A DNA stretch of 5,486 nucleotides from Enterobacteria phage FL68 Tallahassee/FL/2012. The stretch lies in sequence record KF044309.1; one strand, written 5' to 3'. The notes below the pieces were generated by a model that did not search any database, had not been told where the DNA came from, and saw nothing but the letters and a program-made list of their open reading frames with translations. Position 1 is the stretch's first letter; each line of letters begins with the position of its first letter. Below, piece after piece: positions 62 through 5,486 of this stretch. The translations under genes and the position numbers were made by a program.

Positions 62-1723
62 ATGCAACAAGCTAGTGACTTCTACAACAAACCACATATC
101 GACGCTATCAAACCACTCGTTGAAACCGCTGGTATGTCTGTGCTTTCTCAATCTCCAAACCTCCGTATCTGGAAACAGGTAAATTCTCGTATCAAACTAT
201 TGGAAGAAATCCTTGCTCATTACACCAATGGCATCCGCCGTGACGACAACGGCGACTTCTGGATGAATCCCAATTCTCAACTCGCAACCACAATTGCCTA
301 TCGTGCCCATCAAAAAGGACACAACCCAAAACTTATTCAATACCCTGATACATTCACTCTGGATGACATCATCCGTAAAAAGCCATTACCACAAAACGCT
401 CCTGACGAATTAAAACTCTCCGATGAAATCGGGGAAGACTATCGCCTTACAATCATCTCTCTAATCGAAGAAATGCAAGAAATCTACGACGTGCTCGGAC
501 AACTTGATATTAATAACACTATAGACCACAAACCTATCGGTAACGCCCACTGGAATCTACTCTATGAAAAACCTGTATATAAACACTGGTATGAACTGGT
601 ATCAAAACGACCCCTTAAATCAATCAGAGACGACTACAACTATGCAAAGGCTAAGGGTATTAAGGATGAATGCTCGAAAATCCTTGAGGAATCCACCATG
701 AAATCACGTAGAGGCTTTACCGTACAAAGACTAATGAATGCTATGCGCACTGCCCACACTGAGGGCTGGTACGTTGTATTCGATACTCTTACTCTTGCCG
801 ATGACCGCCTTAAGGATTTCTATGATAATCCCAATGCTCTTCGTGACTATTTCCGTGATATTGGTCGTATGGTTCTCACTGCCGAGGGTCGTTCTGTCCA
901 TGATTCATCTTCGGACTGCTATCAGTACTTTTGTGTGCCTGAGTATGGCACCCAGCACGGCCGTTTACATTTTCACGCAGTGCACCTTATGCGCACACTT
1001 CCTTTGGGTTCTATCGACCCTAACTTTGGCAAGCTGGTGCGTACTAATCGGCAAATAAATAGCTTGCAAAATACATGGCCCTATGGTTACTCTATGCCCA
1101 TCGCGGTCCGGTACTCCCAAGACGCATTCTCGCGCGCTGGCTGGCTCTGGCCCGTTGATACAAAGGGCGAACCTCTTAAAGCTACCTCGTATATGGCTGT
1201 CGGCTTCTACGTCGCTAAATACGTTAACAAAAAATCAGATATTGACATGGCCTCTAAAGGTCTAGGGAATAAAGAATGGAACAATTCACTCAAAACCAAA
1301 ATCAACCTGCTGCCCAAGAAAATCTTCCGCATCAGAATGTCTCGCAACTTCGGAATGAAGCTGCACACAATGAGTCACCTCTCAGCGGAAACTCTAATCC
1401 AACTGACCCAAGTGGGCTACGACGTGACCCCGTTCAACAACATCTTGAAGCAGAACGCCAAGAAAGAGCTACGATTGAGGCTGGCAAAGAAATCTGTCGC
1501 CGACGTTTTGGAGGCGCAACCTGTGACGACCAATCTGCTAAAATTCATGCGCAATTTGACCCGTCAAATCGGAGTGTCCAACCTGCAGAGTTTTATCGCT
1601 TCAATGACAACGAAATTAACAAGTATGGATATTTCTGATGAAACCAAAAACTACGTTGATACTGCAGGAATTACTGCTACTCACTTACGAATTAAATCGA
1701 AGTGGACTGCTGGTGGAAAATGA
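62..1723 (+). CDS. A: Replication initiation protein A (rolling-circle HUH endonuclease, gpA)
   Basis: Long ORF in frame 2, collinear with my recollection of phiX174/G4 protein A (e.g. [63 protein letters not shown]-terminus). HUH motif HFHAVH at 968-985; catalytic YVAKY at 1208-1222. Start is ambiguous: the ORF opens at ATG 32 (563 aa) with no Shine-Dalgarno, while in-frame ATG 62 (553 aa) has GGAGG at 48-52 with 9-nt spacing. I call 62; the alternative is 32..1723. Confidence 0.9.
500..529 (+). other. Viral (+) strand origin of rolling-circle replication, 30-nt conserved core CAACTTGATATTAATAACACTATAGACCAC; predicted gpA nick between G506 and A507
   Basis: Exact match to the 30-nt origin conserved in phiX174/G4/alpha3/St-1 as I recall it. 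Lies inside gene A at the homologous place and encodes [10 protein letters not shown]. Confidence 0.85.
698..1723 (+). CDS. A*: Protein A* (internal in-frame restart within gene A; C-terminal 341 aa of gpA)
   Basis: In-frame ATG at 698 with GAGGA Shine-Dalgarno at 686-690 (7-nt spacing). Product begins MKSRRGF as phiX174 A* does, and is 341 aa, the same length as phiX174 A*. Confidence 0.75.
1276..1638 (+). CDS. B: Internal scaffolding protein B
   Basis: 120-aa ORF in frame 1, wholly inside gene A. Collinear with phiX174 gpB as recalled (MEQ..., QLR(D/N)E(N/A)AHN, GLRRD(A/P)[17 protein letters not shown](K/Q)[11 protein letters not shown]-terminal (F/Y)GYF). GGGA Shine-Dalgarno-like stretch at 1265-1268. 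Stop TGA overlaps the K start (TGATG). Confidence 0.9.
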
Positions 1724-1808
1724 AGAAATTCAATCTGAACTTAAAAAACTCGAGAAGCTCTTACTTCGCCACCTTTCGCCATCACCTGAACGTACTGGCA
1801 AAGACTGA
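1638..1808 (+). CDS. K: Protein K (small non-essential protein overlapping A and C)
   Basis: Hand translation from ATG 1638 in frame 0 gives a 56-aa product, [56 protein letters not shown]. It is the same length as phiX174 K and shares the [17 protein letters not shown] and LEKLLL blocks. Overlaps the A 3' end and the C 5' end. Not on the supplied ORF track. Confidence 0.85.
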
Positions 1809-4478: not shown

Positions 4479-5486
4479 ATGTTTGGTGCAATCGCTGGCG
4501 GTATCGCCTCATCTCTTGCTGGCGGACTCATCAACAAAGCCTTTGGGGGCGGTCAATCCGCCTCCTCTACTGGCGTTCAAGGTGATGTCCTCGCTTCTGA
4601 CAATAACGTAATCGGTGCTAATGATGCTGGTATCAAATCCGCTATTCAAGGCTCTAATCCGCCTAATGGCCAACAAGCTGCTCCCAATGCTATTTCGGGC
4701 GTTCTCGCTGACACTGGCAAAGACGCCCTATCTTCAATCACTGGCGCTGGCGTTAATAAACTTATGGAAAAAATCGGACTATCTAAAACTGCTGCTGATA
4801 AAGGCAAGGACACAAAGGATTATCTTGCTGCTGCATTCCCCGAACTCAACGCGTGGGAACGCGCTGGCTCTGGTGCTTCGTCTGCTGGCATGGTTGACGC
4901 TGGCTTCCAAAACCAAAAAGAATTAACTCGCATGCAGCTTGACAATCAAAAAGAAATCGCTAAGATGCAAAACGACACACAAAAGGATATCGCTGGTATC
5001 CAATCTGTCACATCCCGGCAAAATACTAAGGATGCTGTCTATGCTCAAAACGAGATGCTCGAATATAACCAAAAAGAATCTATGTCACGCGTTGGCTCTA
5101 TTCTCGAAAACACAAGCCTCACCAAACAACAACAAACTTCTGAAATTATGCGGCAGATGCTTACTCAAGCTCAAACCGCAGGTCAACATTTTACAAATGA
5201 CCAAATCAAAGAACTTACACGAAAAGTTGGCGCTGATATTGATTCTGTCCGCGCTAACACTGACCGTACACATGTAGAAACTCAACGTTCAAAACAGGAA
5301 GTTCAAAACTCTCGTTATGCTTCCTCACAAGTCGGTAAAACCGCTAAAGATGTCTCTAATGCAGTTACTGATACAGCTAGTTCTATTGTTGATTATTTTC
5401 GTGGTATTGATAACAAAGTGGCAGACGCTTATAACAACTATTTCAAAGATGGTAAATCCGACGGAATCGGGTCGAACATCAAATAA
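4479..5486 (+). CDS. H: DNA pilot protein H (minor spike, DNA-translocating tube)
   Basis: 335-aa product collinear with phiX174 gpH as recalled ([56 protein letters not shown](R/K)[48 protein letters not shown]). Gly-rich N-terminus and a Gln-rich coiled-coil-like middle. Stop TAA is the last three bases of the window. Confidence 0.95.

Follow-up and report, generated by a model that had tools for sequence, protein, structure and literature searches.

The region in which genes A, B, K, and C meet in the genome of Enterobacteria phage FL68 Tallahassee/FL/2012 (KF044309.1) is, with high confidence, the canonical cluster of overlapping genes found in Bullavirinae microviruses of the phiX174/G4 type, in which stop-start overlaps most likely couple the translation of neighboring genes. 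Within the cluster, K is a small, probably accessory gene overprinted in the third frame on the end of A/A* and the beginning of C. The analyzed window, which is the whole 5,486-nucleotide stretch of DNA, was identified as a complete circular microvirus genome by a megablast search against a phage collection. The closest genome is that of Enterobacteria phage FL76 Tallahassee/FL/2012 (KF044310), with 99.9% identity at 100% coverage, followed by Escherichia phage ID2 (NC_007817), with 97.7% identity over the full 5486 nucleotides, ID204 with 95.3%, and then G4, ID18, ID11, and similar phages with approximately 85%. FL68 and FL76 differ at three positions genome-wide: 1654, 2340, and 3346, the last of which is an N in the record. 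Membership in the family is established directly, because the Pfam scores of Protein_K, Phage_B, Phage_C, Phage_GPA, and gpD are all far above their cut-offs, and the E-values for A, B, C, and D range from 6e-37 to 1e-84. Near-complete genome identity is accompanied by a collinear gene order, and, judged by its sequence, the FL68 genome is that of an FL76/ID2-like strain of Gequatrovirus talmos, in the G4-like clade of Bullavirinae. Over the whole genome, G4-like and phiX174-like phages have only about 66% identity.

All genes of the cluster are located on the forward strand, and their frames are given here as the start coordinate modulo 3. Gene A, which encodes the replication initiator, extends over positions 62–1723 in frame 2 (Pfam Phage_GPA, E 9.5e-59), and A* (698–1723) begins at an in-frame internal start of A at position 698. 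Gene B, encoding the internal scaffolding protein, is nested in A at 1276–1638 in frame 1 (Phage_B, E 2.3e-47). Gene K, with 56 codons for amino acids, occupies positions 1638–1808 in frame 0 (Protein_K, E 2.3e-18) and overlaps both the 3' end of A (1638–1723) and the 5' end of C (1720–1808). Gene C encodes the DNA maturation protein of 84 residues and is located at 1720–1974 in frame 1 (Phage_C, E 6.3e-37). Each of these features, including A*, has its counterpart in the annotation of FL76 and ID2. The 3' end of A thus shares its nucleotides first with B and then with K, and across 1276–1974 the cluster uses all three forward frames. The B/K junction has the sequence TGATG (1636–1640) and the A/C junction the sequence ATGA (1720–1723), both read directly from the sequence. 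In the surrounding context, C and D share a further ATGA (1971–1974), in which the C stop and the D start overlap, and the D/J junction is formed by TAATG at 2424–2428, all on the forward strand. The four consecutive junctions B/K, A/C, C/D, and D/J are therefore each a stop-start overlap of −1 or −4.

The coordinates and frames at the two junctions flanking the beginning of K and of C were established to the base. An earlier note on this DNA had claimed that the B stop and the K start share one nucleotide, and this is what the sequence reads: A1638 is common to the B stop TGA (1636–1638) and the K start ATG (1638–1640). The sequence of positions 1630–1644 is TAT TTC TGA TGA AAC, and it contains a second in-frame TGA for B at 1639–1641. 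The claimed overlap of the C start ATG (1720–1722) with the A/A* stop TGA (1721–1723) is likewise present. The A/C junction is AAAATGAAG at 1718–1725 and, in the wider segment 1715–1726, GGA AAA TGA AGA, where A has AAA (1718–1720) as its final sense codon. K reads through in the third frame, as the note had stated, with codons AAT (1719–1721) and GAA (1722–1724) spanning the A/C junction, and positions 1638–1808 are double-coding throughout, since each base belongs to K and additionally to A (up to 1723) or to C (from 1720). The claim that nucleotides 1720–1723 are decoded in all three forward frames holds if the stop codon of A is counted; the sense codons of A, K, and C all meet only at position 1720. 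A second point of triple use, absent from the earlier note, is base 1638, which is part of the A sense codon GAT (1637–1639), of the B stop, and of the K start. The remark that a track of open reading frames can miss K fits the settings of such listings: the default minimum is 60 amino acids, and the 56-residue K is called only with a minimum length below 57. The B/K and A/C junctions, with K crossing the latter, are confirmed to be exactly as annotated in the FL76 and ID2 records. The assignment of the region to the A/B/K/C overlap of a G4/phiX174-like microvirus is supported, and its coordinates equal those in the GenBank annotation of the same two phages.

The overlap architecture is shared by the relatives of FL68. 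In FL76, ID2, and G4, as in FL68, B is located at 1276–1638, K at 1638–1808, and C at 1720–1974, and the A stop ends at 1723; the TGATG and ATGA junctions and the 56-residue K are also the same. The K protein of FL68 is 98% identical to those of FL76 and ID2, and 82% identical to that of G4. The architecture of FL76 does not differ from that of FL68 in any respect, and the C/T difference at position 1654 falls within K, where it encodes Thr6 in FL68 and Met6 in FL76 and is synonymous in A. The same overlap geometry occurs in G4, ID18, phiX174, ID204, EMCL318, ID12, and ID8. Conservation of the junction motifs is observed directly: TTCTGATGA, containing the B stop and K start, and GGAAAATGA, containing the A stop and C start, are both invariant in 13 aligned G4-like and phiX174-like sequences.

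The comparison with the map of phiX174, which had been proposed as a check on the cluster, gives a one-to-one correspondence, with B ending at 51, K at 51–221, A ending at 136, and C at 133–393. The B/K (nucleotides 49–53) and A/C (nucleotides 133–136) junctions of phiX174 carry the motifs TTCTGATGA and GGAAAATGA as in FL68, and the frame relations are alike. In both phages, K is 171 nucleotides long and the distance from the K start to the C start is 82 nucleotides. The K proteins of phiX174 and FL68 have 62.5% amino acid identity over 56 residues, with no stop, and the C protein has 86 residues in phiX174 and 84 in FL68.

The alpha3-like phages resemble FL68 in that a K frame is located between B and C, and TGATG at the B/K junction, which is present in all three genera compared, is kept; the corresponding sequence of WA13 is GGATATTTCTGATGAAGC. 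The N-terminal leucine-rich helix of the alpha3-like K is recognizably homologous to that of FL68 K. In contrast, the A stop TGA of the alpha3-like phages is located at 2241–2243 and the C start at 2270, with 26 nucleotides between them, and ATGA at the A/C junction was not found in St-1, WA13, or Lilleven. The alpha3-like phages, unlike FL68, therefore lack the triple-frame point between A and C, and 26 nucleotides of their K are single-coding. St-1 additionally differs from FL68 in that its K is annotated from an upstream start at 2142 and overlaps B by 16 nucleotides.

It is most likely that the stop-start overlaps serve translational coupling, in which a ribosome terminating on the upstream gene would re-initiate at once on the downstream gene. 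The output of K would then depend on the translation of B, and the output of C on the translation of A/A*. In Haloferax and in E. coli reporter systems, gene pairs with ATGA and TGATG junctions exhibit coupling by termination-reinitiation, and a Shine-Dalgarno motif is not strictly required for the reinitiation (Huber et al. 2019, PMC6728339). The junctions of FL68 are similar to those pairs in their −4 and −1 overlaps, in the co-directional orientation of the genes, and in the E. coli translation system. They differ in that the downstream genes of FL68 are also overprinted, with K lying over A and C, and in that their coupling is putative. In phiX174, start/stop overlaps have been described for B-K, A-C, C-D, and D-J, and genome decompression that removed them lowered the amount of protein C, of which, according to the authors, the lost coupling 'may' be the cause (bioRxiv 10.1101/2020.06.10.143693); a changed 5'-UTR could be the cause instead.

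A less probable explanation, which nevertheless deserves consideration, is that the stop-start overlaps are by-products of compression and overprinting, and that free 30S subunits initiate K and C independently at ribosome-binding sites of their own. Independent initiation of C would be possible because a Shine-Dalgarno-like element, GGTGG (1712–1716), is located 3 nucleotides upstream of its start, and its predicted anti-Shine-Dalgarno pairing of −4.9 kcal/mol is close to the values for D, E, F, and G. Furthermore, the C gene of the alpha3-like phages, which begins 26 nucleotides downstream of the A stop, can do without the ATGA overlap. K, however, has the weakest predicted pairing of the 11 starts in the genome, −3.1 kcal/mol, which corresponds to approximately the 25th percentile of genome positions and is thus no better than the background quartile. 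Independent initiation is also at odds with the retention of TGATG in three genera, the invariance of ATGA across clades that share only about two-thirds of their nucleotides, the −1 or −4 overlap at all four successive junctions, B/K through D/J, and the drop in protein C once the junction of phiX174 had been dismantled (bioRxiv 10.1101/2020.06.10.143693). Coupled translation through the overlaps is thus the reading that we prefer for both K and C.

Comparison of conservation by codon position, another of the proposed checks, favors the K frame in the A/K overlap and the C frame in the K/C overlap. In the A/K overlap (1641–1719), 22 of 79 columns are variable, and the variable sites are distributed over K codon positions 1, 2, and 3 as 5, 7, and 10, and over the corresponding A positions as 10, 5, and 7. 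Most of the differences of FL68 from its G4-like relatives in this segment leave the K protein unchanged but alter that of A (5/6 for G4, 3/4 for ID204, and 5/9 for ID18). In the K/C overlap (1723–1805), 38 of 83 columns are variable, 20 of the 38 at the third position of C, which is the first position of K, and here the majority of differences are silent in C while changing an amino acid of K. In both overlaps, the pairwise substitution counts are small and the comparisons phylogenetically non-independent. So the better-protected frame appears to be that of the K N-terminal helix over the C-terminal tail of A, and that of C over the C-terminal half of K. That the C-terminal half of K yields to C agrees with the naturally shortened K of ID204 and lillemer. 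Overprinting has been inferred as the origin both of K and of the extension at the C-terminus of A (Pavesi, reviewed in PMC8227390), and the better protection of the K frame in A/K and of the C frame in K/C fits this published view. The double-coding segments of FL68 are 84% (A/K), 85% (D/E), 77% (A/B), and 74% (K/C) identical to those of phiX174, compared to 56–68% for single-coding genes.

The end of the A/K overlap, including the A/C junction, varies little: in the 13-sequence alignment of G4-like and phiX174-like phages, only 2 of the 44 columns of 1680–1723 vary, and 1685–1713 form a 29-nucleotide exact run with phiX174, the third longest in the genome. These observations could point to a third, non-coding signal superimposed on the two reading frames, which we consider improbable. 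The stretch would then act as a re-initiation enhancer or a Rho-utilization element setting the K:C ratio, and the K N-terminal helix, not the A tail, would be the dominant constraint; should this unlikely proposal be true, K would have a condition-dependent role yet to be found, despite its dispensability in laboratory assays. Such a signal would agree with the transcription map of phiX174, which places features near the 3' end of B, K, and the 5' end of C, namely a Rho-dependent terminator, T_C/RUT-3, that lowers the amount of K transcript, together with a candidate promoter at the 5' end of C. Positions 1756–1795 of FL68 are identical in 32 of 40 nucleotides to the sigma70-like sequence highlighted in that map, and the local consensus scan detected no promoter at 1756–1795. 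In the promoter and terminator consensus scan of 1200–2200, nothing was found within 1640–1800; the promoter-like sites are located at 1907–1936, inside C, and, as a weak one, at 1604–1633, and their count is not above that of shuffled sequences. The RNA structure at the junction is not significant (z = −1.13), and no Rfam family matches anywhere in the window. The stretch is also not conserved in the alpha3-like phages. The third position of A is the second of K, and the third position of K is the first of A, so the A/K phase leaves almost no free sites. Moreover, the D/E overlap, with its 85% identity and a 68-nucleotide exact run with phiX174, is conserved equally or more and needs no such signal. 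A third function of 1680–1723 was therefore rejected as the explanation, and the conservation of the junction needs only two constrained reading frames, because the D/E overlap equals it and the codon phase of A and K leaves few sites free to change.

The K frame was compared in 15 relatives from three genera: FL76, ID2, ID204, G4, ID12, ID8, ID18, EMCL318, and lillemer of Gequatrovirus (G4-like); phiX174, WA10, and GR8 of Sinsheimervirus (phiX174-like); and St-1, WA13, and Lilleven of Alphatrevirus. The earlier note had staked K on the conservation of its reading frame and start codon in relatives, and direct comparison demonstrates both: none of the 15 relatives has an interrupted frame, and the ATG is invariant. 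The length of K is 56 amino acids in most relatives, 50 in ID204, 54 in lillemer, and, in the alpha3-like phages, 58 when counted from the first ATG. Across the three genera, 14 residues of the aligned proteins, most of them leucines, are invariant, at identities down to approximately 40%. The match of FL68 K to PF12283 (Protein_K) has a score of 66.6 bits, compared to a gathering cut-off of 25, and aligns K residues 1–51 with positions 1–51 of the 56 in the profile. The position of K is also that of a Protein_K gene, with its start at the B stop, overlaps with the 3' end of A and the 5' end of C, and the use of the third frame. The predicted fold of K is a helix-loop-helix, with helices formed by residues 3–22 and 29–46 (single-sequence AlphaFold2, mean pLDDT 79). 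A tblastn search of the phage collection with K returned matches from the G4 clade alone (374 records) and did not retrieve the K of phiX174-like and alpha3-like phages. These were recovered by local tblastn and alignment, and they were hidden in the search of the collection because of the short leucine-rich query, the low-complexity filter, and the size of the database. K is without annotation in some recent records, namely those of lillemer, GR8, and Lilleven.

The length of the K open reading frame was dropped as evidence in favor of conservation. When the protein sequences of A and C were fixed and synonymous codons were drawn according to the genome's own usage, 3.9% of 20,000 resamplings left the K frame open for at least 56 codons. 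By length alone, K is thus weakly unusual (p ~0.04), and the genome contains longer non-genic ATG-initiated open reading frames in alternative frames, with 58–106 amino acids. Three such frames used as controls (738–1058, 5032–5277, and 1083–1265) contain stops in one or more relatives. The last of them, which is in the frame of K, was considered as a further overlapping gene and rejected; it is interrupted by stops in G4, ID12, ID8, ID18, and EMCL318, and is open in the phiX174-like phages. K lies beyond chance because it matches the Pfam family and stays open in all the relatives, whereas each control frame is interrupted in one or more of them.

The role of K in FL68 would be that known from phiX174 and stated in the records of its closest relatives. 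The identification of the K protein in G4 is credited to Shaw et al. 1978 (Nature 272:510) in PMC6542195. K of phiX174 is non-essential and alters the burst size, as cited from Gillam et al. 1985 in a 2026 preprint (bioRxiv 10.64898/2026.07.25.740675). The same preprint describes a saturation mutagenesis of phiX174 in which, under laboratory assay conditions, neither nonsense nor missense variants of K lowered fitness. The notes in the FL76 and ID2 records also describe K as a non-essential modulator of burst size. Since mutants are cost-free in phiX174 and K is shortened to 50 residues in ID204 and 54 in lillemer, K, and its C-terminal tail in particular, has a selective value that is either small or condition-dependent. 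It is very improbable that 1638–1808 is a chance open frame in an alternative phase of A and C that encodes no functional protein, with its triple-frame use an annotation artifact: the open frames among the synonymous resamplings, the non-genic frames of greater length, the viable nonsense mutants of phiX174, and the missing annotation in three records would agree with this, but it is contradicted by the strength of the Protein_K match, the open frame, 14 invariant residues, and invariant ATG in the relatives, the preference within the G4 clade for A/K substitutions that are synonymous in K, the interruption of the control frames, and the K protein and burst-size effect that the literature, as cited above, reports for G4 and phiX174.

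Overlapping genes have their founding example in the A/B/K/C overlap that phiX174 and G4 share. The overlap architecture of phiX174 was reportedly described by Sanger et al. in 1977 and that of G4 by Shaw et al. in 1978, and gene K of phiX174 is said to have been described by Tessman et al. in 1980. The overlap has been known since 1977–78 and is annotated in public records of Gequatrovirus talmos. The cluster in FL68 therefore has little weight as a discovery, and its practical use is that of a positive control: a reading of the sequence alone can recover a 56-residue overprinted gene that is missed by open-reading-frame callers with a length threshold. Some small comparative results may interest researchers studying overprinting and are consistent with published views: the better conservation of the K frame where it overlaps A, that of the C frame where it overlaps K, and the lack of ATGA between A and C in alpha3-like phages. 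For the phage itself, the overlapping layout, with K as a small accessory gene placed over the end of A/A* and the beginning of C, fits additional coding sequence into a genome of 5.5 kb, the size of which is limited by the capsid.

The overlapping stops and starts of the A, B, K, and C genes continue downstream of K. The C stop and D start share an ATGA overlap (1971–1974), and the D stop and J start are fused in a TAATG overlap (2424–2428), shortly upstream of which the E stop TAA is located (2419–2421). Together with B/K (TGATG, 1636–1640) and A/C (ATGA, 1720–1723), C/D and D/J thus make up an unbroken series of four junctions, each with an overlap of −1 or −4.

The length of K (1638–1808) and its annotated start vary among relatives. 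K is naturally short in ID204, which belongs to the same species as the window (relative's sequence L008, 739–891; 50 amino acids), and in lillemer (L012, 772–936; 54 amino acids). This natural shortening in the two sequences suggests that K can do without its C-terminal tail. In alpha3-like phages, K contains an additional in-frame ATG upstream (MGIFLM...). The K gene of St-1 is annotated from this upstream ATG (L006, 2142–2160), which results in a 16-nt overlap with B, whereas in WA13 the annotated K begins at the ATG of the TGATG motif (L007, 2158). Position 1654, one of just three differences from FL76, is C in the window and T in FL76, and encodes Thr6 or Met6 of K, respectively, whereas the change is synonymous in A (TAC/TAT). 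The difference from ID2 at position 1749 is synonymous in C and exchanges Leu and Phe in K. Both K and B are unannotated in the recent public records of lillemer (L012), GR8 (L013), and Lilleven (L015), and both frames are intact in all three. The overprinted genes are missed by automated annotation.

The A frame at its longest extends from ATG 32 and encodes 563 amino acids in the window; however, GenBank records place the A start at ATG 62. A strong Shine-Dalgarno sequence, GGAGG, lies ahead of ATG 62 but not of ATG 32; at −9.5 kcal/mol, no other in the genome is stronger. Gene A also contains a 60-amino-acid alternative-frame ORF (1083–1265) in the same frame as K. Although the genomes of talmos, lillemer, and phiX174-like phages keep this ORF uninterrupted, it was rejected as a conserved gene, since one or two stops break it in G4, ID12, ID8, ID18, and EMCL318.

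A promoter-like site (1907–1936, TTGACT-18 nt-TATTAT, 10 of 12 matches) is located inside gene C upstream of D, at a position that corresponds to that of the pD promoter in phiX174. The number of promoter-like sites of this kind is not above that in shuffled sequences. Logel and Jaschke described a sigma70-like sequence upstream of the candidate btss49 promoter of phiX174. Residues 1756–1795, within the K/C overlap, are identical to it at 32 of 40 positions, and the local promoter scan called no promoter there.

Across the genome, the longest stretch that matches phiX174 exactly spans 68 nt and lies in the D/E overlap (2166–2233). The highest conservation is consistently found in double-coding regions.
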